Of a DNA stretch of 61,554 bases, positions 3,685 through 20,191 are shown one piece after another. The DNA is taken from contig CALDFW010000106.1 of assembly GCA_937942165.1 (NCBI GenBank), forward strand, positions 1-61,554, read 5' to 3'. Position numbers and translations under genes: made by a program. Numbering within the stretch: position 1 is the first letter of the stretch; the number at the start of each line of letters is the position of its first letter. This DNA comes from an uncultured bacterium. GTDB lineage: Bacteria; Latescibacterota; UBA2968; UBA8231. The notes below the pieces were generated by a model. The model was not told where the DNA came from, searched no databases, and saw nothing but the letters and a program-made list of their open reading frames with translations.

Positions 3685-3720
3685 CGGCTCACTCATCGCG
3701 TTTGATCTGCAGTACATAAA

Positions 3721-4833: not shown

Positions 4834-4908
4834 AATCCATCCTGTTGTAAGAGTGAAGACCTTTATCAGATTTCAAAGATCGCATAAGATCAGACGGGCT
4901 GCAAGAAA

Positions 4909-5658
4909 TCAGATAGGCTCGATCTGATCGACGCGAACCCATCCACCCAACCCATTTTGCAACCGCACAAGTGACCAGTCTCCCTCACTGCGCACTACGC
5001 GTACTTTCGTGCCTTCGTGCATTATAAACACTTCCGTTTGATCGACGTCAGGGCCACTGCGGGCAGTAACGACTTCGGCCAGTGCGATGGCAGACACCTC
5101 ACTTGCCTGATGGTAAAGACGAAACGAAAGCCAGCCTATTCCTCCAACCGTTAACAGGGCACAAATAGACAGCGATACCAGCCAGACGACCTGCGTGCTG
5201 CGACCCCATACCCGCCAACCCAATAGGCCGAGCAATCCCATCCAGCCCAGAGCAAAAAAGAGCGACAACTCGCTCAGGGTGGGGTAGAAAAAGGCCTTTG
5301 TTAAAAAGAGACTCACCGCATTGCCATTAGCAGGGGGATCGCGATCCTTCTTCACCTGATGAGCAAAGCGCAGATTCGCGACGATGTCCTCATCACGGGG
5401 GCTGAGTTTATAGGCTCGTTCATACCATAAAATAGCCTCACCTAAACGACCGGATTTAAAGTTTGCGTTGGCCAAGTTATAGAAAAGACGTGCGTCTTGC
5501 ACGCCGCTTTCCACTACTTGCAAATAGGCACGACGTGCACTATCAAAGTCACCGCTGCGATACCGGCCATTGGCTTCATTAAACAGCCCAACGGAAGCAG
5601 ACTGCGCCCCAGCGTCAAAAGCAACGAGCACAAGCGCTAGGATCAGAGCTCGTATCAT
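4909..5658 (-). CDS. batE: BatE-like TPR / membrane / SH3 protein
   Basis: 249 aa: signal peptide, TPR repeats (ARLFYNLANANFKSGRLGEAILWYERAYKLSP), several TM helices, and a C-terminal SH3-like segment (GTKVRVVRSEGDWSLVRLQNGLGGWVRVDQI). Its ATG overlaps the batD stop as ATGA (5655-5658). Confidence 0.65.
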   Translation of the reverse strand: MIRALILALVLVAFDAGAQSASVGLFNEANGRYRSGDFDSARRAYLQVVESGVQDARLFYNLANANFKSGRLGEAILWYERAYKLSPRDEDIVANLRFAHQVKKDRDPPANGNAVSLFLTKAFFYPTLSELSLFFALGWMGLLGLLGWRVWGRSTQVVWLVSLSICALLTVGGIGWLSFRLYHQASEVSAIALAEVVTARSGPDVDQTEVFIMHEGTKVRVVRSEGDWSLVRLQNGLGGWVRVDQIEPI

Positions 5659-7442
5659 ATCTTCTTTTCCAACAGTGTGATGAGATCTTCCGCCTCTTGG
5701 CGAATTTTGTTCATGTCCGAGCGCTCTCCCACCCCTTGAGCAAAACGCGCATAGTCACAGCGAATTAACCACTCGCGCAGCGACTGAATAGTCTCTTCTT
5801 CTAAGCCCTTTTCTCTCAGGGCGTGCTCGCAGGCATCCGGCGAGAGACTCGCGGCTGTTATGTTTAAATGATCAGCGAGAAATGCCAATACCGCGCGATG
5901 TATTTCGCCGTAGAAAGCGCCCGCTTCCCCTTCTTCTAATAGATGACTGGCTCGCTCCAGCCGCTTACCGGCTTCTCCCCGTGCACGGCGACGACGCGCA
6001 TAGGCAATATCACCCCGCAGGCGATCGCGATGACGCTGCAGTAGAATCAATCCTAGCAAGGCAAAGGGGACCGACGCCTGGACAGACCAAAATAGGCCGC
6101 TATCGTACAGCGTAAAAGTTTCGCCCAGCGTTTCTACATCGGGCTTTATATACCTTATATCGCTTCCAACAGCCTCTATGTCTTTACGACTTAAACCGTA
6201 CCCTCCCGACTCTTCCGCGGCAACCTCACCAGCGCTGTGCACAAATATGGGAGCCGATTGGAGTGTGACATATTCCTCTGCTACGGGATTAAAATAGGCA
6301 AACTGAACGGGTGGAATTTCTAAAATTCCACCCGTTTCAGGTATGAGAATGTATTCGTACGTGCGACGCCCGCCGTATTGGTCATTCTCTATCTTTTCTT
6401 CCTCTTCCAGAGTGGGATCGTACATTTTGATCCCCTCTCCGACCTCGATAAGCGGTGTTCCCACTGCGGATAGATTGCCAATGCCCGAGATCTCGACTCG
6501 CAGCGTGACCGGATCGCCGGCCTTTACGTGCGTAGGCTGAGCTCGGGCCTCTAGCTTAAACTCTCCCACTGCGCCGGAGAACGCTTTTGGCTGCCCTGCC
6601 TCAGGTAGAGGCAACACCTGTATTTCTATCGGTTCACTCTGTAGGAGAGCGCTCTGCGTGCGACCAAAAAAAGGATCGGAAGCAAAGAAGTCATCTAACA
6701 TGCTGCGACGCTGCGAACGACGGGCTGGAATCTCACATGACACGGCCATGGACTCGACGACGTGCGCACCGGATTTGGTCGGAAAGAGAGCGACGCGGCG
6801 AAGTGGGGCTACGTTGAACGTAATTCCGTTAATGACTTCTCTACTCGCCTGCAGCTGCTGGGCGACGAAAAGCTCTTCTATCCAGAATCCAGCAAACGAA
6901 GGAATCTCTTTAAAGCCTACGTTGTGCAGTTGAAAACGGTAGAATAGGTCAAAATTAACCGTTACCTGCTGTCCAACATAGACCCGTTGGAGATCGGATC
7001 GAGCCCGCACATAGAGGTGGTCTTCTACGTTAAATCCCCCTCCACGAGTCCGCCCTGATCGCTGTCCCGCACGCAAGACCTCAATATCGATAGGTCGTGT
7101 GCGATAGGTCTTTCCATCAATCTCAATGCTGGCCGAGCTGATACGTATCCGTCCCTGCCTTTTCGCATAGAGACGATAGGTCAACTCGCGCGTATAGCTG
7201 GTAGTAAAATTTACCATTTCAATTCGCGAGCTCACGCTGGGTCCTTCCACGTGAAAGTCTCCCAGTGCGAGCGTAGGGGCAGCCATATGCTGCAGATTTT
7301 CGTCTGAGACAATACGCAAGGTCAGTAGCAGAGCATCCGACTGCGCTACCCGCGTTCGGTCTACGCTCGCCTCAAATTCGACCTGGACGGCTTCAAGCGA
7401 CGAAACAAATAAGAATAAAGCTGTAATAATGCGCGCACTCAT
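5655..7442 (-). CDS. batD: BatD-like (oxygen-tolerance family) membrane protein
   Basis: I prefer the ATG at 7442 (MSARIITALFLFVSSLEA, a signal-peptide-like start). The ORF-track start at 7502 would overlap batC by 56 nt. The protein has a large beta-rich periplasmic part, a TM helix, then an Arg-rich and helical cytoplasmic tail. It sits after batC in a Bat-type gene order. Confidence 0.7.
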   Translation of the reverse strand: MSARIITALFLFVSSLEAVQVEFEASVDRTRVAQSDALLLTLRIVSDENLQHMAAPTLALGDFHVEGPSVSSRIEMVNFTTSYTRELTYRLYAKRQGRIRISSASIEIDGKTYRTRPIDIEVLRAGQRSGRTRGGGFNVEDHLYVRARSDLQRVYVGQQVTVNFDLFYRFQLHNVGFKEIPSFAGFWIEELFVAQQLQASREVINGITFNVAPLRRVALFPTKSGAHVVESMAVSCEIPARRSQRRSMLDDFFASDPFFGRTQSALLQSEPIEIQVLPLPEAGQPKAFSGAVGEFKLEARAQPTHVKAGDPVTLRVEISGIGNLSAVGTPLIEVGEGIKMYDPTLEEEEKIENDQYGGRRTYEYILIPETGGILEIPPVQFAYFNPVAEEYVTLQSAPIFVHSAGEVAAEESGGYGLSRKDIEAVGSDIRYIKPDVETLGETFTLYDSGLFWSVQASVPFALLGLILLQRHRDRLRGDIAYARRRRARGEAGKRLERASHLLEEGEAGAFYGEIHRAVLAFLADHLNITAASLSPDACEHALREKGLEEETIQSLREWLIRCDYARFAQGVGERSDMNKIRQEAEDLITLLEKKI

Positions 7443-7446
7443 AGAT

Positions 7447-8286
7447 TTACCAATCCTTTCCACGACTGGCGCCCGTAGCTCGATACCGACGCTTCTGCGC
7501 ATCTATTTCGCGATTCTTTAGCGCTTCTAACAGCTGTTCTGCCTCTTTCTGACCAATCTGCTCTTCGCTCTGCTCTGGCTTCCCCTCTTCTCCGCTGCCA
7601 TCGTCGGGCTGCGACGACTCCTGTTCTTGCGGTTCGTCATTCTCCGGTTCTTGTTCACCTGGCTCCTGCTCCCCTGCCCCATCTTGCTCCTGCTGCTCTT
7701 CCCCATCCTGCTGTTGCTGTTCTTCCCCATCCTGCTGCTGCTGTTCTTCCCCACCCTGCTGCTGCTGTTCTTCCCCACCCTGCTGGTTTTGTTCCTGATT
7801 CTGCTCGTCTTGATCTTGGCTCTGCTCTTGCTGCTGTTCTTGCTGCTGCTGTTCTTCCAATTTTTGTAGCGCTAGCTCCAAGTTAGCTTTGGTATCCCGG
7901 TCGTTCGAGTTCCGTTCCAATGCCTGCCGATAGGAGGCAATCGCCTGTTCGTATTGCTGCTGCTGGAACCACGCATTTCCCATGTTATAGTGGGCAGATG
8001 CACCCAATATGCCCTCGGCCTGTTCTGCAGCTCGACTCAACTCCTGCAGCGCAGCCTCTAAGTCTCCCTGTTTAAACAACGAGCTACCAACGTTAAAATT
8101 GAGCGCGGGTTCGTCGGGCCGCTCGAGCTGCGCATCGCGGTATAGTTGAAGTGCCTGATCAAACGCTCCCTCCTCAAATAGACGGAGAGCTTCCGCACTC
8201 TTTGAAGCGACGGGATCTCCCACGGTAGCTCCGGTTAGGAGGATCCAAGCCACGGGCAACCCCCAAAAAGCGGCGAAGGGAATCAT
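7447..8286 (-). CDS. batC: BatC-like TPR protein with long Gln/Glu-rich acidic tail
   Basis: TPR repeats (ALNFNVGSSLFKQGDLEAALQEL; AHYNMGNAWFQQQQYEQAIASYRQALE). I prefer the ATG at 8286, which overlaps the batB stop as ATGA (8283-8286); the ORF-track start at 8304 is a GTG. The C-terminal ~130 aa are low-complexity E/Q/D. Confidence 0.6.
   Translation of the reverse strand: MIPFAAFWGLPVAWILLTGATVGDPVASKSAEALRLFEEGAFDQALQLYRDAQLERPDEPALNFNVGSSLFKQGDLEAALQELSRAAEQAEGILGASAHYNMGNAWFQQQQYEQAIASYRQALERNSNDRDTKANLELALQKLEEQQQQEQQQEQSQDQDEQNQEQNQQGGEEQQQQGGEEQQQQDGEEQQQQDGEEQQEQDGAGEQEPGEQEPENDEPQEQESSQPDDGSGEEGKPEQSEEQIGQKEAEQLLEALKNREIDAQKRRYRATGASRGKDW
7677..7796. repeat. Five tandem copies of a 24-bp unit inside batC
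   Basis: Plus-strand units: ccccatcttgctcctgctgctctt, ccccatcctgctgttgctgttctt, ccccatcctgctgctgctgttctt, ccccaccctgctgctgctgttctt, ccccaccctgctggttttgttcct. On the minus strand they encode (G/D)GEEQQQQ repeats. Confidence 0.9.
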
Positions 8287-9308
8287 TCGAAACGCCCTTT
8301 CCACTCGACGTTTCGAGCGCGTTTATCCCCGAGAAAGGCTTCGATAAAAAAGCAGCACAGCGCTATAAACAGAGGAAATTGAAAGCGTTCTTCATATTGC
8401 GTGAAACGCGTTGAGGAAAATTCTTTCTGGTCCATTTGGGCGATCTGCTCACTTATTTCGACGAGTTCTTGTCCACCCAGAGAAGATCGAAAATAGTCGC
8501 CGTTTGTCGACAGAGCGATCTCCTTGAGCGTGGTCTCGTCAAGACGGGTTTTTACGTAATTTCCCCGCTGGTCCTTATGATAGCTCGTTCCTCCCCCTTG
8601 CTGCATTTCTGGAATTAGCTCACCGCCTGAAGTCCCGAGCCCAATTGCAAAAACGTGAACGCCTTGCTCAGCGGCATCCCGCGCCGCAGCAAGTGGTTCA
8701 CTAATGTGATCTTCGCCATCGGTAAACAGAACTACAACCTTGTGCTGTTCGTCTTCCGCATCAAAACTTCGGGTGGCCAACCTCAGAGCATCGCCAATGG
8801 CCGTGCCTTGCACGGGAATCATTCCAGCATCGAGCACGTCGAGAAACATGTCGACGGCTCCGTAGTCTAGCGTTAGTGGACACTGGACAAACGCTTGGCC
8901 AGCAAATACGACGAGACCAACGCGATCGCCCTGCAAGAGATCGATCAATTCGCGTATTTGCTGTTTTGCTCTAGCCAATCGACTCGGTTTGAGGTCTTCT
9001 GCAAGCATGCTACGCGACACATCAAGCACTAAAACAACGTCAACTCCTTTGCGCTGCGCCATCTCCAGCTTTGCGCCAAATTGGGGACCACAGAGAGCCA
9101 ATAAAGCCCAAGTAGTTCCCATACCCAAAAAAACGTACTTGCCAAACTGGCGCCGTCGACTCAAGTCACGAGTCAGCTTTTCTGCAAGCGGCAAGCGCAC
9201 AAAGCGCAGCAGAGCTTTGCGGCGTGCCAACGTGGCCCAAGCAAAGAATACGCAGAGGAGAGGGATCAGCAGAAGAAACCAGAATGTCTCAGGTGAAGAA
9301 AAACGCAT
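8283..9308 (-). CDS. batB: BatB-like von Willebrand factor A (VWA) membrane protein
   Basis: 341 aa. Two N-terminal TM helices, then a VWA domain with the MIDAS motif (VVLVLDVSRSM ... VVVLFTDGED), and a C-terminal TM helix. Confidence 0.8.
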   Translation of the reverse strand: MRFSSPETFWFLLLIPLLCVFFAWATLARRKALLRFVRLPLAEKLTRDLSRRRQFGKYVFLGMGTTWALLALCGPQFGAKLEMAQRKGVDVVLVLDVSRSMLAEDLKPSRLARAKQQIRELIDLLQGDRVGLVVFAGQAFVQCPLTLDYGAVDMFLDVLDAGMIPVQGTAIGDALRLATRSFDAEDEQHKVVVLFTDGEDHISEPLAAARDAAEQGVHVFAIGLGTSGGELIPEMQQGGGTSYHKDQRGNYVKTRLDETTLKEIALSTNGDYFRSSLGGQELVEISEQIAQMDQKEFSSTRFTQYEERFQFPLFIALCCFFIEAFLGDKRARNVEWKGRFE

Positions 9309-9321
9309 TCTATATATGCTC

Positions 9322-10326
9322 TCAGGGCAAACGGCGAAAGCGCGTATTAGATAGAAGAATCTCAGCTAAGAGAAGCAGCAAACCAGGCCAGAGAAAGTAG
9401 AAATAGCGCTCCGAGTACTCCACGTGTACTTCAGACGTAATTTCCGTTGTTTCCAGTTCGCCGATTTCTCGATAGATGGCTTCCAGCTTCTCTTCGCTCG
9501 TGGCTCGATAGTATTTCCCCCCCGTGCGCTGGGCAACCTCCCTTAGCGTCTCTTCATCAATTTCGACCTGAACCGTTTGGTATCTCGTGCCAAAGATCCC
9601 CTGCACGGGCCGGCGGATAGAACCATCACTTCCAACGCCAATCGTATAGACGCGCACCCCTACAGCCTGCGCCACGTCCGCCGCCGTAAGCGGCTCGATC
9701 TCCCCGGCGTTATTCACTCCGTCCGTTAGCAGTATAATCACCTGACTTCGCCCCTCCGACTCACGCAGGCGATTGGTCGCATTGATTAGTGCCATGCCGA
9801 TAGCCGTTCCGTCCCAGCTCTCGTCAGCAATCTGGACCCCCTGCAAGAAAGAAGTTAACACATCGTAGTCTAAGGTCAGCGGGCACTGCGTAAAGCTCTC
9901 CCCTGCGAAGACGACCATACCGATGCGATCGCTATAGCGCCCCCCAACAAAGTCGGACACGACCTCTTTGGCAACGGCTAGCCGACTGCGCTCCCCATTG
10001 TCCAAGTCGTTGAGCTCCATACTCGACGAAACGTCCAGCGTCAGCATGATATCAATACCTTCTGCCGACATCTCCCGCTTTTCACGTCCCGCCTGCGGGC
10101 GCGCCATAGCCACGATTAAGAGTCCCAACCCCAAAACTTTAAAAACGATGAGTAGATGACGTAGACGAACCCATATCGTGTTGCCCATCTGGCGAAGGCT
10201 TGCCAAGTCAGAAAACTGCACGCTTCCCTGGCGGCGGCGCCCCTGTACGATGTGCAGGTAGACCAAAAGCGGTAGCAAGAGCAGCAGCAGCAGCCACTCG
10301 GGGTTTTCAAAGCGCAGCGTCTGCAT
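9322..10326 (-). CDS. batA: BatA-like VWA membrane protein
   Basis: 334 aa. N-terminal TM helices (WLLLLLLLPLLVYL), a VWA/MIDAS domain (IMLTLDVSSSM ... VIILLTDGVNN), and a C-terminal TM helix. It is the first VWA gene of the Bat block. Confidence 0.8.
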   Translation of the reverse strand: MQTLRFENPEWLLLLLLLPLLVYLHIVQGRRRQGSVQFSDLASLRQMGNTIWVRLRHLLIVFKVLGLGLLIVAMARPQAGREKREMSAEGIDIMLTLDVSSSMELNDLDNGERSRLAVAKEVVSDFVGGRYSDRIGMVVFAGESFTQCPLTLDYDVLTSFLQGVQIADESWDGTAIGMALINATNRLRESEGRSQVIILLTDGVNNAGEIEPLTAADVAQAVGVRVYTIGVGSDGSIRRPVQGIFGTRYQTVQVEIDEETLREVAQRTGGKYYRATSEEKLEAIYREIGELETTEITSEVHVEYSERYFYFLWPGLLLLLAEILLSNTRFRRLP

Positions 10327-11260: not shown

Positions 11261-11263
11261 AGC

Positions 11264-12640: not shown

Positions 12641-15600
12641 GCTGTTTCTCTCCCGACTTCAAAGACTCGGCGGATCCACACCAAGAGGGCAACATTGGTT
12701 ATAAAAGCAGCGGCGTAAAGCAGTTGGATCGTTTCGTTGGGAATAACCCAGAAGCTGCCCAAAGCACTCAACAATGCTACTGTAATTGAAGGCAGCCAAG
12801 CCCACGCAGCGCGCCGATGTAAACCATAGGCCACGGCACCGCTGAGCAGTCCCATAATCAGATTGACTTGTCCCTCGAGTCCTTTGGCCTCACTCAGCGC
12901 AACGGTCGCTGAAATCATCAGAAAGACCGCATTGGATGCAAACGAGTAGATCAGCCACGCAATAAAACCATCTTTGTAATTCTGATAGCCCCGCTTAAGG
13001 ACCATTACGAGACCGGAAAGAGCAACTGCGAAAGGAAGCACAAAGACCGAAACCCATAGCACAACTGAGCCCTGATTTCCAATCAGATTGATGGGATTAT
13101 GAGCAGGACGACGATCTGCAATTTGCAGCCGGTCTTCGTCTTCAGTTAGCCATTCCACGCTGTTGGCGACCAAGGCTCCATTGGCCTGCTGAGAGAAGTA
13201 TTCATTAGAGGCAAAATCCGCATCGCCAAATACGACGATGCGCACCTGCCCTTCTGATGTTAGGCTTGTATCGGGCTCGGCCTGCACGGCTACCGCCAGC
13301 GAAACTGGTCCCCGCAGGTCCACTTCGGGATCGAATTCGACCTGTCCGCCCTCTCCCGTAACGGGCGACAGATCGCGCTCCCCCCAACTGCTCTGGTGAG
13401 TGAGGGCCAGCGCCGCAATCTGCGGACTTTTCAATCGATGACTGGCTGGACGCACCGAACGCGCGAGTGGAAAAAAGCTCATAGTCCCGGAGGAAAGCCG
13501 CTCCGAAATAGGGTGGTCTCCATAGTTGATCACCACCGGGACCGACACGTCCGCGCCAAATAGCTGTCCCAATCCACTCAGATCAACGACAAAGTCCTGT
13601 CCAAGCTCAATGGAGTACGCGTCGAGCAGGGCCTCTAAACCCGTTGGCGCACCTGGGTCTAGCAGGAACAGCGCGCGGCCACCGCCGTCCAAATAGAGCT
13701 CTAAGACTTCAGCATCCGCCGCCGAAAAGCGCTCTTTGGGAGCAAGCACGACCAGCAAGGATGCGTCGTCTGGCACTCCGTCCTTCAGTTCGAGTCCGCC
13801 CAACACTTCAAAGTTGAGTTCCCGCAGGCGGCCTTTTAAGAGCGAGTAGCCCTTGCCATCGACCTGATCGAGTTCGGCCTCGCCGTGCCCCGTAGTGAAA
13901 TAAGCTTTCATATCGCGAGCCCGCAGGGCTTTGAGGATTGCATTGCTCAGCGCCTCTTCGCTCATCTGCATAATCCGCTCGCTGCGCACCTGCCCATCAC
14001 CGCGCACCTCGACAATCGACGTACCCCGTTCGCGAATATTGTTTTGCTCAACTTGAAGCGCATTTTTTTGCGGGTCGACCAGTTCGTATTCAAAATGGTC
14101 CGATTGGTGGTTGTACTCTTTCATGAGATCTTGAAAGCGCATACCCTCCATTTCGCTCATAAACGTCTTCACCTCAACGAATTGCCCTTCTTCCTCCACG
14201 GTGCGCATAAGGCGCTTGCTGTCATCAGACAGCGTGAAGAGCGCATCCGCCGTCATATCGTGACGAAAGTTGTACCGGTCTCCCAGAAAGTTCAGAAGCG
14301 CGGCAATGCCGAGCGAGAGAACAATGCCCAGGCCTGCGCCCGCGAGCTCTGTTACGCTCCATCGCCCCTTGCGGGAAACGACGAGTAAACCAACAAAGGC
14401 TATAGACAGCGGATAGAGCACCACGCTAATCCAAAAGATCCACTCGCCTTGACTGTCGGTAAGCGCAATCGGATTGTAGCCGGCTTGGCGCGGACGAATC
14501 GATATCAGACTCTCATCCTCCGCTAGCCAACTGAGGGCATTCAGCGCTAGATCGCCATTGCCTTGGTAGTCAAAATATTGGTTGGTTGCAAAATCGGAGT
14601 CACCAAATACAACCAGACGTCCACTCTCTCCCTCAACCGCTACGGCGAGAGAAATGGGACCCGGCGTATCCACGCCTTCGTCGAGTTTGACCGTACTGTC
14701 ACCATCTCCCTGCAAAACGCGCAGATCTTTCTCCGCCCACCCTGCCTCAGAGGTCAGGGCCAGTGCTTCCCCTTGAAATCCGGGTCCTGCCGCATCGCTA
14801 CTAAAGCCAACAGAGCGACCTAGCTGGTAGAAGGTCATAACGCCCCTGTGCTTGCGCGTTATGGGATGGTCTCCATAAGAGACAGAAACGGGCGTTGTGA
14901 AATCGAGCCCAAATAGCGATCCAATACCGCTGGTATCGATGACGAAATCATCGCCAAGAGAGACCCCCCACTCTGACAAGAGGCCTTCTAACCCACTTTC
15001 GGATAGTGGATCGAGCAGGGCTAATACAGAGCCACCTTCCCGCAGATAGGCTCTCAACGCCGCCACTTCAGTGGGTAAGAACGGAGTGCGCGGACCCGCA
15101 ATAACAAGGACGGCACAGTCGCGGGGAACGCGCTCCGCGCGCGCGAGGAAGAGTGAATCGTCAATCGCGTAGTCGACTTCCTGTAAACGCTCTTTCAGCA
15201 TTCCCAAACCGGCTGGGCCATTGCTGGGATCACGCTCACCGTGCCCCACACTCAGGTACACCTTGTCCTGACGCTCGCGAGTCACTTTGAGCAGCGCATT
15301 TGTTATTTCGCGCTCTTCTAACTCAGTGATTTGCTGCTCTTTATCCCCGCTCTTTATCAACAGCGTATTGTAGCGTCTGATGCCATTTTCTTCAGTGCGG
15401 ACCGGATCTCGATCGGGATCAATCATCTCAAAACTGAAACGACTGCCGCGATTGCTAAACTCAGCCAGCAACAGCTCCAAGTCCGCGTTCTCTCCACCGT
15501 CTATAAAGGCAAGTGCTTCGACGTCGCGATCGAGATTCTGTAGAGTTTCTATCGTCAAATCAGACAGACTGTGCAGCTGTCCCTCCGTCAGATCTAATCG

Positions 15601-15861
15601 CTCTGCGTAGCGGTTGCTGAGAAAATTGATCATTGCCACAATGCCAAAGACCATGATACCTCCCCAAAACGCATTGAGCCAGCGACCGTATTGCCGAAAT
15701 AAATCTGCGTTTATAAAGCCGGCACTCACGACGAGCAACAGACCAACTGCGGCATTTACCAAGCCCGTTGAGCCCGTATCAGGTGAGATTAGATAGGCTA
15801 ACCCACCGACGATGATTAACGCGGCCCCAACGAGACTAATAGGAATGGCGTAGTCCTTCAT
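12637..15861 (-). CDS. Tandem-duplicated GldG-like ABC-transport auxiliary protein (two ABC_transp_aux modules plus an extra C-terminal membrane domain)
   Basis: 1074 aa. Module 1 (about aa 65-497) and module 2 (about aa 505-957) share colinear motifs. These are VYLSVGHGERDP / AYFTTGHGEAEL; VLVIAGPRTPF...YLREGGSVLALLDP / LLVVLAPKERF...YLDGGGRALFLLDP; YGDHPITRK / YGDHPISER; VVFGDSDFATNQYF / VVFGDADFASNEYF; and LSWLAEDESLISIRPRQAGYNPI / VEWLTEDEDRLQIADRRPAHNPI. Each module ends in a TM helix. Residues 958-1074 add about 4 more TM helices. Confidence 0.75.
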   Translation of the reverse strand: MKDYAIPISLVGAALIIVGGLAYLISPDTGSTGLVNAAVGLLLVVSAGFINADLFRQYGRWLNAFWGGIMVFGIVAMINFLSNRYAERLDLTEGQLHSLSDLTIETLQNLDRDVEALAFIDGGENADLELLLAEFSNRGSRFSFEMIDPDRDPVRTEENGIRRYNTLLIKSGDKEQQITELEEREITNALLKVTRERQDKVYLSVGHGERDPSNGPAGLGMLKERLQEVDYAIDDSLFLARAERVPRDCAVLVIAGPRTPFLPTEVAALRAYLREGGSVLALLDPLSESGLEGLLSEWGVSLGDDFVIDTSGIGSLFGLDFTTPVSVSYGDHPITRKHRGVMTFYQLGRSVGFSSDAAGPGFQGEALALTSEAGWAEKDLRVLQGDGDSTVKLDEGVDTPGPISLAVAVEGESGRLVVFGDSDFATNQYFDYQGNGDLALNALSWLAEDESLISIRPRQAGYNPIALTDSQGEWIFWISVVLYPLSIAFVGLLVVSRKGRWSVTELAGAGLGIVLSLGIAALLNFLGDRYNFRHDMTADALFTLSDDSKRLMRTVEEEGQFVEVKTFMSEMEGMRFQDLMKEYNHQSDHFEYELVDPQKNALQVEQNNIRERGTSIVEVRGDGQVRSERIMQMSEEALSNAILKALRARDMKAYFTTGHGEAELDQVDGKGYSLLKGRLRELNFEVLGGLELKDGVPDDASLLVVLAPKERFSAADAEVLELYLDGGGRALFLLDPGAPTGLEALLDAYSIELGQDFVVDLSGLGQLFGADVSVPVVINYGDHPISERLSSGTMSFFPLARSVRPASHRLKSPQIAALALTHQSSWGERDLSPVTGEGGQVEFDPEVDLRGPVSLAVAVQAEPDTSLTSEGQVRIVVFGDADFASNEYFSQQANGALVANSVEWLTEDEDRLQIADRRPAHNPINLIGNQGSVVLWVSVFVLPFAVALSGLVMVLKRGYQNYKDGFIAWLIYSFASNAVFLMISATVALSEAKGLEGQVNLIMGLLSGAVAYGLHRRAAWAWLPSITVALLSALGSFWVIPNETIQLLYAAAFITNVALLVWIRRVFEVGRETA

Positions 15862-15862
15862 C

Positions 15863-16645
15863 TTACCGCCTCCAGCGCCGAGACTCGATAACCCGCGTAG
15901 TCAGAAATAGGCAGAAAAAGGTAAAGCTCAGATAGAAAACCACATCGCGACTATCAATGACGCCACGCTGAAAGTCTTCGAGGTGCTCTATAAAAGAGAC
16001 GTATTGTAAGATCTTAGCCGCCGTTGGCCCAGCAAAGCTGGCGGACCAATCAATAAGCCAAAACATCAACAGTATGCCGAAAGAGAGTAGGACAGCTACA
16101 ATCTGATTTTCCGTCAGTGCAGAAGCTAGGATTCCAACAGAAATAAAAGTCGCACCGAGAAATAGGTAGCCGAGATAGCCCGAGAAAATGGGACCCCAGT
16201 CTGGAGACCCATACGCTTCGAGAATTAAGAAGTACACCATTGTCAGGCTCACGATAATTGCGTAGAGCGAAAAGCAGGCAAAAAACTTACCCAAAAGAAC
16301 CTGAACAGAGCTAATAGGTGAGGTCATTAGCAGTTCGATCGTGCCCGTTTTCTTTTCTTCGGCGTACAGGCGCATCGTCAACATGGGAACGATGAGCAAC
16401 CAGATAAAATCCATTACTGCAAAAAACTGAGTTACAACCATTTCGTTGAGGTTGAGTGCTGGCATTCCTCCGCCCATCTGCTGGGCACGTTGGCCAAGCT
16501 GTAGGCAGATCATATTAAATTGCATGAGAATGCTGCGGAACAAATACCCGGACAGAAAGAGAAACACACCGGCGATAACATAGGCCACCGGCGAGACGAA
16601 ATAGGAACGCATCTCCTTTGAATAAACCGCTAAAAAGTTGCCCAT
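15863..16645 (-). CDS. ABC-2 type transporter permease (GldF/NosY-like)
   Basis: 260 aa, about 6 TM helices. N-terminus MGNFLAVYSKEMRSYFVSPVAYVIAGVFLFLSG is typical of ABC-2 permeases. Its start overlaps the ATPase stop by 1 nt (TAATG at 16645). Confidence 0.8.
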   Translation of the reverse strand: MGNFLAVYSKEMRSYFVSPVAYVIAGVFLFLSGYLFRSILMQFNMICLQLGQRAQQMGGGMPALNLNEMVVTQFFAVMDFIWLLIVPMLTMRLYAEEKKTGTIELLMTSPISSVQVLLGKFFACFSLYAIIVSLTMVYFLILEAYGSPDWGPIFSGYLGYLFLGATFISVGILASALTENQIVAVLLSFGILLMFWLIDWSASFAGPTAAKILQYVSFIEHLEDFQRGVIDSRDVVFYLSFTFFCLFLTTRVIESRRWRR

Positions 16646-17586
16646 TATGCTTTCACCTCCTCTGTCGTCAAACGCAAGAATATATCTTCAAGCGTCATAT
16701 CGAGTCCGCGCAGTTCGCGCAGCGCATATCCTCCGTCGACAATTTGCCGCGCTAAGCTATCCCGCACGTCCGTGCCCGGCGTGCTGGTTATGATAAAGAC
16801 GCCATCTTCCTCTCCACCACTCTCGACGGCTACATCTATCACGCCATCCATTGCCCGAATCATAGACAAGACCTCTTGGCCAGGTCCACCAATCGAAGCG
16901 CGTAGCACTTCGCCCTCTTTAAGCTGGGCAATTAGGCTTTCCGGCGTCCCCTCTCCGGCTATACGTCCGCCATTTATAATGACAATCTTTTCACATGTCA
17001 TACTCACTTCAGGTAATATATGCGTGCTTAGGATAACCGTATGGTCACCCGCCAACCCTTTAATTACCTCGCGAATTTCGATGATTTGTTTGGGATCTAG
17101 TCCTACGGTAGGCTCGTCAAGAATAAGCACATCAGGACTATGAACGAGCGCTTGGGCCAACCCAACGCGCTGCTTGTAGCCTTTGGAGAGATGGCTTATA
17201 ACGGTATTCTGATGGTGAGCGATTCCCGTTTTTTCCATCGTATCATCAATGCGGCCGTTGAGTTGTGGACCCGTCACCCCTTTAATTCTGGCGACAAAGC
17301 GCAGGTAAGCACGGACGGTCATATCCAGATAAAGCGGAGGCGTTTCAGGCAGGTAGCCAATGCGTTTCCGGACCTCCATGGACTCTTCAACGACGTCAAA
17401 CCCCGCAACGGTGGCCTGGCCACCGCTCGGCGGTAAATAGCATGTTAACATTCGCATCGTCGTTGTCTTGCCGGCTCCATTGGGGCCGAGAAATCCGAGT
17501 ATCGTTCCCTTTCCCACGGCAAAGGATACCCCTTCTACGGCTACAACCTCACCATAACTTTTCGAAAGCTCGTTGACTTCTATCAC
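16645..17586 (-). CDS. ABC transporter ATP-binding protein (GldA-like)
   Basis: 313 aa. Walker A GPNGAGKTT, signature LSKGYKQR, Walker B VLILDEPTVGLD. Confidence 0.92.
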   Translation of the reverse strand: MIEVNELSKSYGEVVAVEGVSFAVGKGTILGFLGPNGAGKTTTMRMLTCYLPPSGGQATVAGFDVVEESMEVRKRIGYLPETPPLYLDMTVRAYLRFVARIKGVTGPQLNGRIDDTMEKTGIAHHQNTVISHLSKGYKQRVGLAQALVHSPDVLILDEPTVGLDPKQIIEIREVIKGLAGDHTVILSTHILPEVSMTCEKIVIINGGRIAGEGTPESLIAQLKEGEVLRASIGGPGQEVLSMIRAMDGVIDVAVESGGEEDGVFIITSTPGTDVRDSLARQIVDGGYALRELRGLDMTLEDIFLRLTTEEVKA

Positions 17587-17628
17587 CGAACACCCTCCTT
17601 GACTGACATACTCAGTTGGCTAATCTCT

Positions 17629-18507
17629 CTATCCGCGTCTCCGCACGCGCGCATGAAACAGGCGCACAAGTGGATCCACATATGATTTCGTTATATCTAT
17701 GGAGACCTCATCGACCCCGTTGTGAAGAAATAGCGCGCGCCTCCGTTCGTCTTCTTGTTCTTGCTGACGAGCAAAGTAGGCACGGACTTCCTGACGGCCG
17801 CTGTCGACCAAAAACTGTTCCCCTGTCTCTGCGTCCTGTAAGTTGATAAAGCCCACGTCGGGCAATGCGCGTTCTCTCGGGTCAAAGAGCGACACCGCCA
17901 CCAGGTCATGCCGGCGCCTCATAAGCTGAAGAGAGCGCTCATAATGCTCATCAATAAAGTCTGATATGAGGAAAACAACGCTGCGACGATGTAGGACCTT
18001 TTCCAAATAATCGAGCGCGTTTGTAATGGATGTTCGCTTGCCCTGAGGCTGGAAATACAGCAGTTCTCGAATAACGCGTAGAACGTGCTTGCGACCTTTT
18101 TTCGGAGGAACAAAAACCTCCACCACATCTGTGAAAATCAGTAAACCAACGCGATCGTTATTCTTTATAGCGGCGAATGCCAAAAGCGCCGATATCTCGA
18201 CTCCCACCTCTCCTTTCATCTGCCGCACAGATCCGAAAGCACCAGAAGCGCTTGCATCTACGAGCAGCATGACGGTCTGTTCGCGCTCTTCGTCGAATAC
18301 TTTCACATACGGAGAACCCGTCCGCGCCGTAACGTTCCAATCAATGGTGCGCACATCATCTCCGCGGAGATATTCACGCACTTCGGCAAACTCCATTCCG
18401 CGTCCCTTAAATGCGGAGTGGTACTCTCCTGCGAAAAGATCGTTTACAACGTTGCGCGATCGAATTTCGATCAGGCGCACTTTTTCTAATATTTCCTTGG
18501 GAATCAC
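17629..18507 (-). CDS. DUF58-family protein (MoxR-associated, VWA-like)
   Basis: 292 aa. Hallmark segment VREYLRGDDVRTIDWNVTARTGSPYVKVFDEEREQTVMLLVDASASG. It starts 10 nt downstream of moxR. Confidence 0.85.
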   Translation of the reverse strand: MIPKEILEKVRLIEIRSRNVVNDLFAGEYHSAFKGRGMEFAEVREYLRGDDVRTIDWNVTARTGSPYVKVFDEEREQTVMLLVDASASGAFGSVRQMKGEVGVEISALLAFAAIKNNDRVGLLIFTDVVEVFVPPKKGRKHVLRVIRELLYFQPQGKRTSITNALDYLEKVLHRRSVVFLISDFIDEHYERSLQLMRRRHDLVAVSLFDPRERALPDVGFINLQDAETGEQFLVDSGRQEVRAYFARQQEQEDERRRALFLHNGVDEVSIDITKSYVDPLVRLFHARVRRRG

Positions 18508-18517
18508 GATAGCGCTC

Positions 18518-19513
18518 TTAGGGGACCTCTACGTGGTCAAATAGCTGCTGTACAATACGTTCTGAATCAACCTCCTCTGCTTCAGCCTCGTAACTAGCAA
18601 CAACTCGATGGCGCAGCACGTCTGCTCCAATCGCTTTCACATCTTCTGGTGTAACGTAGGCGCGCTGACGTAAAAATGCGTGTGCCCGAGCGGCGCGAAC
18701 GAGGAAGATAGTCGCCCTAGGAGAAGCTCCGTGTTCGATTAGAGGAGCGATCTCATTTAACCCCATCTGCTCGGGAAAACGCGTAGCGTGAACGAGATCG
18801 ACAATATAGTCTTTGATTTTATCATCGATATAAACCATCTCTACAACCTCGCGCAGTTGTAAGACCTGATCTACAGAAAGGGCATGCTGCACTTCGATAT
18901 CCCCACCGCTGGCCATCCGATCGAGGATCATGCGTTCATCCTGACGGGATGGATAAGTCACTTTCACCTTCAGCATGAACCGGTCGACCTGCGCCTCTGG
19001 CAGTGGATAGGTTCCCTCTTGTTCAATGGGGTTTTGCGTAGCCATAACCAGAAATGGATCTTCGAGGCCGTACGTCTCGTCTCCTATTGTGACCTGCCGC
19101 TCCTGCATACATTCCAACAGGGCACTCTGCACTTTGGCAGGCGCACGGTTGATCTCATCGGCCAGGACTAAATTGGCAAAGACCGGGCCCATCTTGGGAA
19201 TAAAAGCACCGTCTTGGGGATTGTAAATTAGCGTCCCCGTTAGGTCGGCAGGAAGTAAATCCGGTGTGAACTGTATCCGCTTAAAGCTCGCCTGTAGTAT
19301 GCGAGCGAGCGTAGATACAGTCAGCGTTTTAGCAAGTCCTGGCACACCTTCTAACAGGATATGCCCACCGCATATAAGGCCAATCAGCATGCGTTCAACC
19401 ATATAGCGCTGTCCAACAATTACGCGATCCATCTCAGAAAAAACGCGATCAACAAGCGGGGCCTGCTGCTGGATTTTTTCACTTATAGCATGTATATCAA
19501 TAGCGTTTTGCAT
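18518..19513 (-). CDS. moxR: MoxR-family AAA+ ATPase
   Basis: 331 aa. Walker A LEGVPGLAKT, Walker B NLVLADEINRA, and FLVMATQNPIEQEGTYPLPEAQVDRF, typical of MoxR/RavA-type AAA+ proteins. Confidence 0.92.
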   Translation of the reverse strand: MQNAIDIHAISEKIQQQAPLVDRVFSEMDRVIVGQRYMVERMLIGLICGGHILLEGVPGLAKTLTVSTLARILQASFKRIQFTPDLLPADLTGTLIYNPQDGAFIPKMGPVFANLVLADEINRAPAKVQSALLECMQERQVTIGDETYGLEDPFLVMATQNPIEQEGTYPLPEAQVDRFMLKVKVTYPSRQDERMILDRMASGGDIEVQHALSVDQVLQLREVVEMVYIDDKIKDYIVDLVHATRFPEQMGLNEIAPLIEHGASPRATIFLVRAARAHAFLRQRAYVTPEDVKAIGADVLRHRVVASYEAEAEEVDSERIVQQLFDHVEVP

Positions 19514-19705
19514 AATCTCCTACTGGGCAAAAAAAAAACCGCCTTTGCCAGGTACAGTCTCACGGCGCGACTCGGGACCCGTACGTGCATCGGCGGATAT
19601 ACTTCTAAAACGATGGATTAAAAAGACGGCTTCCGGTCTTTAGCGGCGCAAGGCCGTGCGTATGTCTTATCTTATGACCGAGCTGGGAACAGGAGTCCCT
19701 CAGCT

Positions 19706-20191
19706 CTAATTTACTCTATCCTGAAAATGCACCCACTCCTCTGGACTTTGGCCCACATGAGGCAAGAGCTGTTTGGCGCTTGCCGCGAGTTCAGAGTTGG
19801 GATAGTGATCTATGACACGCTGATAGGCACCTCGCGCTTTTTCGATATCGTTCAGATATTCCTCGTATATGAAAGCGATCATAAACTGCGCTTCGTCGCC
19901 TAAGTCACTTTGAGGATATTCGTCCAGCAAGCGCTCATACAGAGTGATTGCACTTTGCATATCCCCTTTTTGCTGTGCTACAGCCGCCCAGTTCTTTAGC
20001 GCGGCAGGCGCCTTTTCATGTTGAGGATATATACGCACAAATTCGCTGTAGGCATCTACTGCCTGGTCCATGTTTTGGTCCGCTGTCGCGCGTTCAGCTT
20101 CTTCCCATAAATCGCTCGGTTCATTGCCACCACACCCCCACTGAACGACCGTAACAAGGGGAATGAGAAATAACCTCAATACAAATAGCAT
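19706..20191 (-). CDS. Small TPR-like lipoprotein (YbgF/BamD-like fold)
   Basis: I prefer the ATG at 20191 (MLFVLRLFLIPLVTVVQWGCGG, lipoprotein-like signal with Cys). The ORF-track N-terminal extension to 20380 overlaps the FmdB gene. TPR-like repeats are present (AVDAYSEFVRIYPQHEKAPAA; AITLYERLLDEYPQSDLGDEA; ARGAYQRVIDHYPNSELA). Confidence 0.6.
   Translation of the reverse strand: MLFVLRLFLIPLVTVVQWGCGGNEPSDLWEEAERATADQNMDQAVDAYSEFVRIYPQHEKAPAALKNWAAVAQQKGDMQSAITLYERLLDEYPQSDLGDEAQFMIAFIYEEYLNDIEKARGAYQRVIDHYPNSELAASAKQLLPHVGQSPEEWVHFQDRVN

Follow-up and report, generated by a model that had tools for sequence, protein, structure and literature searches.

The 61,554-nucleotide contig analysed here (the window) carries a cluster of 12 co-directional minus-strand genes, positions 4909–19513, that unites a GldG-type ABC transporter with the MoxR/Bat 'aerotolerance' genes, both of them poorly understood systems of the bacterial envelope. 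The order is moxR, DUF58, ABC ATPase, ABC-2 permease, GldG, DUF4340, a DUF4381/BatD-like gene (p317), batA, batB, batC, batD and batE, with the four-gene ABC-2/GldG/DUF4340 module interrupting an otherwise canonical MoxR–DUF58–DUF4381–BatA–E operon (Table 1). We find it somewhat probable that the cluster encodes one co-expressed, functionally coupled cell-envelope system, organized as a co-transcribed and translationally coupled operon. Beyond confirming the gene order and the interruption given in a preliminary description of this DNA, profile searches (Pfam and NCBIfam) uphold its family assignments. Its count of fourteen genes, or fifteen with the downstream GFO/IDH/MocA oxidoreductase (GFO), becomes 12, the number that its own list names, or 13.

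The genes are packed closely, with intergenic spacings from moxR to batE of 10, 42, −1, 1, −4, 3, −20, 13, −4, 4 and −4 nt. The maximum is the 42 nt previously given as a ceiling, and batE is separated from GFO by 75 nt. Five pairs of genes overlap: the sites already reported, TAATG at 16645 and ATGA at 12637–12640, 8283–8286 and 5655–5658, were verified, and to these is added the 20-nt overlap of p317 with batA, which is kept among relatives (median −20 nt in 67 loci). At the two boundaries of the module, labelled junctions 1 and 2, a terminator scan gave nothing terminator-like, and junction 1 has no hairpin. Among relatives, junction 1 has a median length of 22 nt (90th percentile 66 nt, 60 loci) and junction 2 of 2 nt (90th percentile 38 nt, 68 loci); with such medians across about 60 species, the junctions are too short to hold both a terminator and a promoter.

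Table 1. Features of the cluster and its flanks, in order of transcription.
Feature	Position	Strand	Basis
TPR + Peripla_BP_6 protein, 709 aa; starts the co-directional run	20599..22728	-	Pfam, NCBIfam
FmdB-family zinc-ribbon protein, 104 aa	20211..20525	-	NCBIfam TIGR02605, 1.5e-14
CpoB/BamD-like TPR lipoprotein, 161 aa, directly upstream of moxR	19706..20191	-	Pfam TPR_6/YfiO
Intergenic region upstream of moxR, 192 nt	19514..19705	-	Sequence, fold
MoxR AAA+ ATPase (AAA_3, MRP-type), 331 aa, cytoplasmic	18518..19513	-	Pfam AAA_3 7e-64, AAA_lid_2
DUF58 protein with VWA domain, MIDAS DxSxS (D84)	17629..18507	-	Pfam DUF58 2e-82, VWA_2
Junction 1 (DUF58 to ABC ATPase)	17587..17628	-	42 nt; AAGGAGG Shine-Dalgarno 6 nt before GTG start
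ABC ATPase, ABC-2/ABCA-like class (GldA-like, below equivalog cut-off)	16645..17586	-	Pfam ABC_tran 4e-29
ABC-2 permease (GldF-like), 6 predicted TM segments	15863..16645	-	Pfam ABC2_membrane_2 7e-14
Tandem GldG-like protein, 1074 aa	12637..15861	-	Pfam ABC_transp_aux 1e-47, two stretches
DUF4340 protein, 458 aa	11264..12640	-	Pfam DUF4340 2e-45
Junction 2 (DUF4340 to p317)	11261..11263	-	3 nt
p317 ('mini-BatD'), 317 aa	10307..11260	-	Orthologue Pfam matches, tail alignment
BatA: two N-terminal TM (BatA domain), VWA with MIDAS (D98), C-terminal TM	9322..10326	-	Pfam BatA/VWA, NCBIfam BatA
BatB: membrane-anchored VWA, MIDAS (D96)	8283..9308	-	Pfam, NCBIfam, TM scan, motif
BatC: TPR, acidic Q/E-rich repeat tail	7447..8286	-	Pfam TPR, NCBIfam BatC
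BatD: signal peptide, large periplasmic BatD/DUF11-like region, one TM, cytoplasmic tail	5655..7442	-	Pfam BatD 5e-37
BatE: TPR, two TM segments, SH3	4909..5658	-	Pfam TPR_16, SH3_3; TM scan
GFO/IDH/MocA oxidoreductase	3778..4833	-	Pfam, NCBIfam
Bidirectional intrinsic terminator, strong	3718..3760	.	12-bp G+C-rich stem, T-runs both strands

The sole convincing terminator (AGAGGCCCCCCC...GGGGGGGCCTCT TTT, flagged on both strands) lies after GFO, at ~3718–3760. The 75-nt spacer before GFO has no hairpin, and GFO, present downstream in 33 loci at 69–96% identity and kept in a subset of lineages, is probably the final gene of the transcription unit. At the other end, the spacer upstream of moxR is the run's only long gap (median 113 nt among 56 loci) and a probable promoter region. 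It has a hairpin at the stop of the TPR gene and a weak hairpin followed by U5 at ~19620–19640; its fold z-score of −0.3 is not significant and it has no Rfam match. The three genes beyond it (19706–22728) are kept in 52 (TPR–Peripla_BP_6), 54 (FmdB) and 56 (CpoB/BamD-like, Latescibacterota) related loci, so the conserved block exceeds 4909–19513. The last of these proteins has NCBIfam BamD, YbgF and CpoB matches below their cut-offs and, read by eye, a lipoprotein-type signal with a cysteine after a hydrophobic N-terminal leader; Calditrichota-type loci, too, have a YfiO-type gene upstream, one unannotated gene of ~300 aa before moxR. The previously described cluster, 19513–4909, is real, and the unit as a whole probably extends to GFO and possibly takes in the three upstream genes.

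Within the module, the ABC ATPase has its Walker A, signature and Walker B motifs, and its nearest solved relatives are the nucleotide-binding domains of ABCA3, ABCA7, ABCA4 and ABCA1 (E 1e-65 to 1e-57) together with NosF. The permease evolves the slowest in the cluster (mean pairwise distance 0.21), staying 98% identical where DUF4340 identity is 66%, and a sequence search of the PDB gave no match to any solved chain. The constraint on the permease and the kinship of the ATPase with ABCA lipid exporters and NosF both count for coupling. The tandem GldG-like protein is internally duplicated, its halves being 38% identical across 453 aa, and contains two stretches of ABC_transp_aux, DUF7088, IFT52_GIFT and DUF4350 (DUF4350 9.5e-15), laid out as two periplasmic DUF7088+GIFT units with TM helices between them and a C-terminal 4-TM bundle. 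Its AF2 model (pLDDT 72) matches by Foldseek the GIFT domain of IFT52 (E 5e-10, TM 0.79) and OST48, a modelled resemblance to non-catalytic scaffold subunits. The tandem form fits a homodimeric ABC-2 permease; deep branches (L075, L067 and Calditrichota) have a single GldG, and other loci encode single-chain permease–GldG fusions. The DUF4340 protein has an N-terminal membrane anchor followed on the periplasmic side by an array in which a beta-sheet/helix unit recurs about six times (AF2 pLDDT 89.8), with no Foldseek match in the PDB at E<1e-3 and no profile match to PDB sequences, leaving it without a solved relative. Members of this family are ~450 to 1700 aa long and have as many as 8 repeats, and the Bat-linked clade is a small fraction of its 17,614 representative clusters.

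The MoxR protein has a Walker B motif, LVLADE, found by motif scan, and a Walker A motif, GVPGLAKT, read by eye; the DUF58 protein, annotated as its cytoplasmic adaptor, has no TM segment in the TM scan. p317 is a small paralogue of BatD, with a signal peptide, a BatD-like Ig domain, one TM segment (151–169) and a DUF4381-like cytoplasmic tail in which its invariant residues are concentrated. It has no Pfam match itself and a weak match to the NCBIfam family LB_053; among 15 orthologues, DUF4381 is matched in 10 and the BatD domain in 7. Its tail aligns to the similar cytoplasmic tail of BatD (E 2e-5), which follows a TM segment at 470–488 in the numbering of the 615-aa open reading frame (~450–468 in the 595-aa annotated product), and these two tails are the only sizeable cytoplasmic handles of the Bat set. 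The batC region contains a 24-nt tandem repeat in five copies (7662–7785). The TM scan predicts that the GIFT, DUF4340, VWA, TPR and Ig parts share one compartment; the BatA homologue BB0173 was located experimentally to the inner membrane with a periplasmic VWA domain (PMC5700661).

The identical 12-gene order is found in 65 species-level Latescibacterota genome loci and two metagenome contigs, with all 12 genes in reach in 49 of these 67 loci and DUF4340 identity dropping to 29% among them. Six Calditrichota-type loci, including that of cultured Caldithrix abyssi, carry the four-gene module in a different slot, between p317 and batA, and in five the DUF4340 stop overlaps the batA start or lies ≤3 nt from it. 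A tree built from the module proteins resolves the Latescibacterota and the Calditrichota as clades, each with 100% bootstrap, and places a third Bat-linked locus (L087) outside both. A loosened relative, L092, keeps its Bat flanks around a cluster that includes the gene of a C25 peptidase bearing a T9SS sorting tail. A Planctomycetota contig has no batA–E within reach and reads ABC, permease, GldG×2, DUF4340×2, HtrA, a protein joining a BatD-type Ig domain to a DUF4129-like tail, and MoxR; this locus, too, counts for coupling. The 65 genomes mostly reflect one vertically inherited event and so amount to one observation, not 65. The Bat-linked arrangement occurs in >70 independent loci and is hence not due to chance, and its recurrence in at least two phyla argues, short of proof, that both systems work together. 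A lack of conservation, which had been named as grounds for abandoning the proposal, is decisively not the case.

We infer from these data that the 12 genes are probably co-transcribed and that the ABC module and the MoxR/Bat module may come into physical contact. Two cytoplasmic ATP-driven motors, the AAA+ MoxR with its DUF58 VWA/MIDAS adaptor and the ABC ATPase, would serve a set of GIFT, DUF4340, VWA, TPR and Ig-like parts that face the periplasm from anchors in the inner membrane. The ABC-2 permease would carry the tandem GldG scaffold and the DUF4340 repeat rod, together forming a putative type-V (ABCA/NosFY-like) exporter or extractor that, on the periplasmic side, shifts or passes on an envelope component of lipid-linked or lipidated kind; the nature of this cargo is speculation. 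The VWA proteins BatA and BatB, the TPR proteins BatC and BatE and the Ig-like BatD and p317 would form a neighbouring periplasmic scaffold, assembled or reset from the cytoplasm by MoxR–DUF58, which might, likewise speculatively, dock on p317 and BatD through their conserved DUF4381-type tails. A test of evolutionary-rate covariation gave no signal between the modules, and none within them either. Independent promoters have been reported for the bat genes of Leptospira despite their operon-like layout.

Two separate envelope-maintenance devices could instead share one promoter because both are needed under the same conditions (such as envelope, oxidative or heat stress), with no contact or mutual dependence. 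Each module functions alone elsewhere, as lone modules and as canonical Bat operons that work without the ABC module in Bacteroidota, Spirochaetota and others; Riemerella Bat operons are stress-induced, and no protein fuses the ABC module to the Bat/MoxR module in any locus surveyed. We take this explanation seriously while considering it unlikely. The module is placed inside the Bat operon rather than appended to it, between the genes of the cytoplasmic MoxR/DUF58 and the membrane Bat proteins, and in two phyla it is found at two distinct positions within the operon, with stop and start codons that overlap. Furthermore, the Planctomycetota locus still pairs it with MoxR and a p317-like gene, and GIFT, MoxR and vWA proteins are associated in archaea.

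A neutral history is more doubtful still, namely a chance ancestral insertion that brought no shared function or regulatory logic and was retained since excising it would break up an operon that is essential or useful, with conservation reflecting vertical inheritance. The 65 Latescibacterota genomes are indeed a single clade, and all ten Bat-less relatives of the module lie between rpsO and pnp, with no evident functional connection and equally tight junctions (18–21 nt, or a 4-nt overlap); the PNPases of these ten loci are 57–93% identical to that of locus L088. The module can thus long persist in an operon without any obvious tie between the functions of the two, and tight packing alone is no proof of a complex, so the gene coupling from which the preliminary description had argued for a single envelope machine does not carry that conclusion. 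However, at least three lineages of the module show Bat linkage, in two slots, which makes repeated chance insertion into one type of operon unlikely, and it persists in the loosened L092 and, as the MoxR/p317-like association, in the Planctomycetota. Gene order just downstream of the cluster differs among relatives, and the cluster is therefore under order-preserving selection.

That the module genes are true GldA–GldF–GldG orthologues, and the locus an accessory to motility or type IX secretion, is very improbable. GldA, GldF and GldG are the best NCBIfam names and the C25 peptidase of L092 bears a T9SS sorting tail, but the scores are far under the equivalog cut-offs (315 bits against 402.6 for the ATPase, 164 against 288.5 for the permease and 101 against 390 for GldG), so the earlier 'GldA/F/G-type' label holds at the superfamily level only. 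The cluster has no further gld or spr genes, the window encodes a flagellar FapA protein instead, and the Gld set of Flavobacterium is not known to include a DUF4340 partner. A MoxR–vWA biological-conflict or anti-phage system, suggested by a secondary Pfam match of MoxR to bpMoxR (2e-13), deserves almost no credence, given that PADLOC defence models match the cluster proteins solely via generic ABC-ATPase similarity, that the locus, found phylum-wide and inherited vertically, is part of the core chromosome, and that it has no beta-propeller or effector genes.

The cluster retains all eight component families of the Bat/MoxR MRP operon moxR–DUF58–hypothetical(DUF4381)–batA–E known from Bacteroides fragilis, Riemerella, Parapedobacter, Leptospira and Borrelia (bb0170–0176), in the same relative order, with MIDAS and Walker motifs intact and with moxR at the front, as is the case for the MRP subfamily (PMC11834572). 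As opposed to the published operons, which have 7–8 genes and no transporter, it has four extra genes between DUF58 and the DUF4381-like gene (between the latter and batA in Calditrichota), and its DUF4381-like protein bears a BatD-like ectodomain. With GldA–GldF–GldG of Flavobacterium johnsoniae and F. psychrophilum, where GldG is required for T9SS-dependent secretion (PMC5682007), the module shares its ABC ATPase, ABC-2 permease and ABC_transp_aux/GIFT accessory superfamilies and the predicted membrane layout. Here, however, GldG is tandem, a DUF4340 gene is always attached and a Bat operon surrounds the module, with no gliding genes nearby.

In type-V exporters, TM domains go together with extracytoplasmic domains of very large size. 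The permease, GldG and DUF4340 would likewise join TM and large extracytoplasmic parts, and the ABCA exporters (ABCA1/3/4/7) are the nearest solved relatives of the ATPase; as ABCAs are eukaryotic and single-chain, with unrelated ectodomains, the likeness is limited to the nucleotide-binding domain. NosF (7o0y, 1.8e-38) belongs to NosDFY, in which the ABC-2 NosFY energises periplasmic NosD in the copper-centre assembly of N2O reductase, and we take NosY to be, like the permease of the cluster, a member of the ABC-2 group defined by Pfam ABC2_membrane_2. Cryo-EM work on NosDFY from 2022 reportedly indicates that an ABC-2 'transporter' can work as the motor that drives an assembly factor in the periplasm and not as a pump, a role that may serve as a working analogy for the module, with no claim of membership; the cluster has no NosD, NosL or NosZ.

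A literature search found no published description of a union of Bat with ABC-2/GldG/DUF4340, in line with the earlier view that this is not a described system. The idea of a GldG-like/MoxR/vWA association nevertheless has a precedent: archaeal arCOG01314 (DUF4350) with MoxR (COG0714), vWA and Ig-like proteins was predicted to be a 'putative novel secretion or membrane-remodelling complex' (Makarova, Galperin and Koonin 2015, PMC5898192). The archaeal system lacks the ABC ATPase and permease, DUF4340 and the TPR proteins BatC and BatE. Although only a prediction, it is the closest precedent and counts for coupling: in both, a membrane-anchored protein with a GIFT/flavodoxin-like ectodomain is encoded with MoxR, vWA and Ig-like membrane proteins, and the GldG of the present cluster matches DUF4350 too.

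The cluster forms an unbroken minus-strand gene run in the window, in which every start, stop and junction was checked, with a four-gene transporter module lying inside a MoxR/DUF58/Bat operon (see table). The run from 19513 to 4909 contains 12 genes, not the 14 of the preliminary description. Successive gaps from moxR to batE are 10, 42, −1, 1, −4, 3, −20, 13, −4, 4 and −4 nt, so the earlier statement that intergenic gaps reach 42 nt at most holds, as do the four coding overlaps quoted there; the 20-nt overlap of batA with the gene for p317, the 317-aa DUF4381/BatD-like protein encoded before it, is additional. Pfam and NCBIfam bear out the family calls. Both junctions of the module (DUF58/ABC and DUF4340/p317) were scanned and are free of terminator-like sites, and the 42-nt DUF58/ABC spacer holds nothing other than a strong Shine–Dalgarno sequence.

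Location of the cluster genes, their upstream neighbours and related features in surveyed loci (plain coordinates refer to the window; L numbers denote loci in other genomes or contigs).
Feature	Location	Strand
TPR + Peripla_BP_6 protein (709 aa), FmdB zinc ribbon and CpoB/BamD-like TPR lipoprotein (three genes)	19706-22728	-
moxR	18518-19513	-
DUF58	17629-18507	-
ABC ATPase	16645-17586	-
ABC-2 permease	15863-16645	-
GldG-like protein (1074 aa)	12637-15861	-
DUF4340	11264-12640	-
p317 (317 aa)	10307-11260	-
batA	9322-10326	-
batB	8283-9308	-
batC	7447-8286	-
batD	5655-7442	-
batE	4909-5658	-
Extra lipoprotein gene, Calditrichota-type clusters	L080:3136-4062, L083:3948-5156, L085:4581-5519, L086:4757-5689, L089:4532-5494	
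Module without Bat genes	L073, L076-L079, L081, L082, L088 (6389-13546), L090, L091	

MoxR (Pfam AAA_3 7e-64, AAA_lid_2 8.5e-23) heads the operon as the first gene past a long intergenic gap and is followed by DUF58 (Pfam 2e-82), whose MIDAS motif is DASAS at D84. The MIDAS DxSxS is intact in DUF58, BatA (D98) and BatB (D96), as are the motifs of the ABC ATPase and the Walker B motif of MoxR. BatA and BatB carry the Pfam BatA N-terminal domain plus VWA, and VWA_2; they are the best NCBIfam names for these proteins, yet the scores lie below the Leptospira-specific cut-offs. Pfam and NCBIfam place BatC (TPR), BatD and BatE (TPR plus SH3) after BatB. The acidic, Q/E-rich low-complexity tail at the C terminus of BatC derives from a 24-nt tandem repeat present in about five copies (window 7662-7850), which accounts for an AT-skew dip at 7001-8000; the repeat number is polymorphic, since BatC varies from 263 to 271 aa among the otherwise near-identical contigs L001-L005. 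Elsewhere, one Latescibacterota subclade (L045, L056, L061, L062, L070) combines a longer GldG-like protein (1293-1299 aa) with a double-length BatC (578-585 aa), and L067 has a BatB of 598 aa.

On its own, p317 matches DUF4381 below threshold (0.17). Among its orthologues, 10 of 15 match DUF4381 (best 2.4e-6) and 7 of 15 match the BatD Ig-like domain, and the cytoplasmic tails of p317 and BatD align with each other. The label 'DUF4381/BatD-tail-like' given to it previously was therefore right, and p317 is a mini-BatD and the DUF4381-type small membrane protein that precedes batA. Judging from hydropathy and charge distribution, MoxR, DUF58 and the ABC ATPase are predicted to be soluble and cytoplasmic, and all other cluster proteins to be membrane-anchored with their bulk outside. 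The VWA domains of BatA and BatB are predicted to be periplasmic, because the loop between the two N-terminal helices is strongly basic; a periplasmic VWA was found by experiment in BB0173, the homologue in Borrelia (PMC5700661). Within the Bat set, only two cytoplasmic parts are of any size, namely the tails of p317 (~150 aa) and BatD (~105 aa), which are homologous to each other; most of the invariant residues of p317 lie in its tail.

The module consists of ATPase, ABC-2 permease, ABC_transp_aux (GldG-like) protein and DUF4340, tightly linked in this order. The closest solved relatives of the ATPase are ABCA lipid exporters, followed by Thermotoga ABC-2 ATPases and NosF; a PDB sequence search with the permease gave no match. 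The permease is the slowest-evolving cluster protein, with 98% identity where DUF4340 has 66%, and a mean distance of 0.21 versus 0.9-1.0 for DUF4340, BatD, BatC and p317. Identity between the two halves of the GldG-like protein is 38% over 453 residues, and the protein is thus a tandem duplication, which fits a homodimeric ABC-2 permease. Its extracytoplasmic domain has a GIFT fold, as indicated by Pfam (IFT52_GIFT 1.6e-19, OST48_N weak), phmmer against IFT52 (1.9e-5) and Foldseek (IFT52 N-domain E 5e-10, TM 0.72-0.79; OST48 E 1e-7). IFT52 and OST48 are non-catalytic scaffold subunits. Thioredoxin-like/calsequestrin Foldseek matches to part of the protein, which would have suggested a link to 'periplasmic reducing power', are marginal (E 0.002-0.04), with no CxxC seen, and were set aside. 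Single-chain fusions of ABC-2 permease and GldG (ABC_transp_aux) of ~730 aa also occur (P0347, P0350-P0360, L094:8001-10217), with only an ATPase gene alongside and no DUF4340. As Rosetta-stone evidence, the fusions suggest that GldG contacts the permease. The DUF4340 protein is predicted (pLDDT 89.8) to have an anchor at its N terminus and, after it, about six beta-sheet/helix repeats. Foldseek and profile searches returned no significant solved relative of it, the sliding-clamp and OspA matches having TM ≤0.16. Members of the DUF4340 family (17,614 representative clusters) range from ~450 to 1700 aa with up to 8 repeats, and this variation in length suggests an extended rod of adjustable length.

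The transcription unit most likely ends after the GFO/IDH/MocA oxidoreductase gene (GFO, 3778-4833), because the 75-nt batE/GFO spacer has no hairpin and a 12-bp G+C-rich perfect bidirectional terminator lies beyond GFO at ~3718-3760, shared with a convergent response-regulator/histidine-kinase gene (2512-3684). GFO is kept in 33 loci and the genes past it are not conserved. At the other end, the sole long gap of the run, 192 nt with a weak hairpin and U5, separates moxR from three further co-directional genes that extend up to a divergent gene at 22860. These three genes are kept in 52-56 Latescibacterota loci and may be part of the same system; in Calditrichota-type loci, a YfiO-type TPR gene lies upstream of moxR with one unannotated gene between them. 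No Rfam match to a riboswitch or leader was obtained upstream of moxR in a scan of 3500-23000, the fold of the 192-nt gap has a z-score of −0.3, and sigma-70 promoters were not enriched over shuffles, with a model that is probably wrong for this lineage. The remainder of the window is core chromosome, with rpoA, secY, fusA, lon and others. Pfam gives no match at E≤1e-5 for two large ORFs, 28373-29905 (+, 510 aa) and 29923-31320 (−, 465 aa), situated between lon and the gene of a tRNA/rRNA uracil methyltransferase.

The union of module and Bat operon was surveyed by scanning a DUF4340 homologue alignment against one genome per species and annotating the loci with the window proteins. Several near-identical metagenome contigs also encode the DUF4340 protein of the window and share its layout. 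The exact window order, with the module between DUF58 and p317 (slot 1), is present in 65 genome loci, of which all but a few (Gemmatimonadota or 'Handelsmanbacteria') carry the label Latescibacterota; with two metagenome contigs this makes 67 loci, 49 of which have all 12 genes in reach. Three more loci are truncated or degraded and consistent with this order as far as their sequence reaches. DUF4340 identity across slot-1 loci falls to 29%, and across species the junctions stay tight, with a median of 22 nt for DUF58-to-ABC (90th percentile 66), 2 nt for DUF4340-to-p317 (90th percentile 38) and −20 for p317/batA. Gemmatimonadota or Gemmatimonadaceae labels (one of them Gemmatimonas phototrophica) and one 'Handelsmanbacteria' label occur among L008-L010, L022, L024, L025, L028, L029, L036, L041 and L046; these NCBI labels are probably inconsistent, as the cluster proteins nest among Latescibacterota.

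In Calditrichota (L080, L084 and Caldithrix abyssi, L083), the module occupies a second slot, between the p317-like gene and batA, in the order moxR-DUF58-[TPR/SurA-like lipoprotein]-p317-[ABC, permease, single GldG, DUF4340]-batA-E. Three more contigs with this order came from a second survey, for which the Caldithrix protein served as seed, and in 5 of the 6 loci the DUF4340 stop overlaps the batA start or lies within 3 nt of it. The extra lipoprotein gene between DUF58 and the p317-like gene in Calditrichota-type clusters encodes TPR and a SurA_N_3-like chaperone domain, and L085 and L086 have a SPOR-domain gene after batE. The second survey also returned L087, with slot-1 order and different flanks, and L092, a loosened cluster with unrelated genes interspersed. 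The L092 cluster encodes a 1078-aa peptidase of the C25 (gingipain) type that carries a T9SS sorting tail (L092:3290-6526); in addition, an S26 signal peptidase gene separates DUF58 from the ABC module, and batA is preceded by a URO-D gene. From this survey, too, the module is seen to occur in Planctomycetota: in a MAG (L093, GCA_016179685.1, 8115-19875), the order is groES-groEL-ABC-permease-GldGx2-DUF4340x2-HtrA-[BatD-Ig + DUF4129-like tail]-moxR, with a tandem GldG of 1164 aa, a doubled DUF4340 of 861 aa and a BatD-Ig + DUF4129-like protein of 308 aa. Here MoxR and a p317-like protein are encoded alongside the module, which adjoins protein-quality-control genes, including the HtrA/DegP protease, with no DUF58 or batA-E in the 23-kb locus. 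A neighbour-joining tree of ATPase, permease and DUF4340 recovers Latescibacterota and Calditrichota as each monophyletic (100/100 bootstraps), with L087 in neither; the deeper order, which bears on whether Bat linkage is ancestral or repeatedly gained, is unsupported by bootstrap. Residual mirror-tree rate covariation gave no signal between module and Bat, nor within modules, with only 10 loci having all 15 families.

The preliminary description had proposed a single envelope machine. This interpretation is partly supported: the union is real, conserved and recurrent, and its reading as one machine is tentative, tempered by a natural control. In ten other loci the four-gene unit stands alone, without Bat genes, and in 10 of 10 of these it is flanked by rpsO (S15) and pnp (PNPase) within the housekeeping string nusA-infB-rbfA-truB-ribF-rpsO-pnp, with junctions of 18-21 nt or a 4-nt overlap. 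The insertion is conserved across MAGs labelled KSB1, 'Deferribacteres' and 'Cytophagia', whose PNPases share 57-93% identity with the L088 enzyme. The module can thus persist for very long, tightly packed, in an operon to which it has no evident functional connection, and tight spacing with vertical conservation is therefore insufficient to infer a complex. The case for a genuine connection to Bat rests on recurrence: two slots inside the operon, three or more lineages of the module, the Planctomycetota neighbourhood with MoxR and a p317-like protein, and the independent archaeal association discussed below. On balance, we favour a single envelope system whose genes are co-expressed and whose parts are functionally coupled. 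In it, the ABC-2/GldG/DUF4340 unit would be a type-V exporter/extractor or NosFY-like motor delivering an envelope component, lipid-linked or lipidated, on the periplasmic side; a neighbouring scaffold would be formed by the Bat VWA/TPR/Ig proteins, and MoxR–DUF58 would assemble or reset that scaffold by docking on the p317 and BatD tails. The evidence shown is at the level of genes; co-transcription, contacts between proteins, the cargo and the docking on the tails are inferences.

In a stronger version, which we regard as tentative and rather unlikely, the MoxR/DUF58/Bat proteins and the ABC-2/GldG/DUF4340 proteins would be physically assembled, as subunits, into one trans-periplasmic machine with two ATPases. 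Such an apparatus, for envelope biogenesis or secretion, would belong to a class not recognised before, with a core of GIFT-domain scaffold, MoxR-VWA remodeller and Ig-domain membrane proteins with DUF4381/DUF4129-type cytoplasmic tails. That core would be of ancient origin, with reduced forms of it in Planctomycetota, archaea and canonical Bat operons, and the 'aerotolerance' and 'gliding' phenotypes would be secondary effects of one envelope process. Co-regulation of the module and Bat without contact is the leading alternative to functional coupling and in our estimate unlikely. Neutral hitch-hiking of the module in the Bat operon draws strength from its equal persistence between rpsO and pnp, but the repeated Bat linkage, in two slots and at least three module lineages, makes it improbable. 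If either of these held, the union would still provide a useful caution, as the rpsO–pnp copies show how stable such insertions are. True GldAFG orthology is very improbable, as all three NCBIfam equivalog cut-offs are missed by wide margins: 315.4 bits against 402.6 for GldA (TIGR03522), 164.1 against 288.5 for GldF (TIGR03518) and, for GldG (TIGR03521), 100.6 in three stretches of a tandem duplicate against 389.85. No gld or spr gene was noticed within the 61-kb window, where a flagellar FapA protein is encoded. An anti-phage defence or other conflict system is scarcely credible, since PADLOC gives only generic ABC-ATPase similarity and no match to MoxR, DUF58, GldG, DUF4340, p317, BatA, BatB or BatD.

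The Bat operon and the GldA/F/G transporter are widespread, and in pathogens both influence stress tolerance, secretion or virulence. To our knowledge, a mechanism has been lacking for the former since 1999 and for the latter since 1997. Their conserved, recurrent union yields the testable hypothesis that Bat and GldA/F/G-type systems act on the same periplasmic process, with candidate contacts between DUF58 or MoxR and the p317 and BatD tails, and between DUF4340 or GldG and the VWA domains of BatA and BatB. Bat proteins would then be recast as envelope assembly or scaffold factors, not redox devices. Caldithrix abyssi is a cultured carrier of the union.

Searches of the literature on DUF4340, GldG with MoxR, Bat with Latescibacteria, and BatC/D/E returned no description of the union, and results for DUF4350/DUF58 were dominated by plant DUF58x. 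In the papers found, mentions of DUF4340 are all incidental, one of them naming it as an essential domain in Verrucomicrobium spinosum (PMC12283558). Published Bat operons comprise 7-8 genes, none of them for a transporter (PMC3557215, PMC5700661, PMC7500135, PMC11834572), and their aerotolerance or stress phenotypes are inconsistent, being seen in Bacteroides and Riemerella but not in Leptospira (PMC3557215, PMC11834572). Every compositional feature of the Bat/MoxR-MRP operon is present in the cluster, but its contiguity, moxR-DUF58-small membrane protein-batA, is broken, with four transporter genes (6.3 kb, 11264-17586) separating DUF58 from the small membrane protein. The archaeal arCOG01314-MoxR-vWA neighbourhood, a GIFT-MoxR-vWA complex predicted in 2015 in which a GldG-like DUF4350 protein accompanies MoxR and vWA proteins, is defined by a DUF4350/GldG-like ectodomain, COG0714 MoxR, vWA and Ig-like membrane proteins in one neighbourhood (PMC5898192). 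The cluster has this whole feature set, with DUF4350 matching the GldG-like protein at 9.5e-15, MoxR, the VWA domains of DUF58, BatA and BatB, and the Ig-like domains of BatD and p317, to which it adds the ABC transporter, DUF4340 and the TPR proteins. The resemblance is one of kind, not of membership, and the union adds a bacterial counterpart to the archaeal complex.
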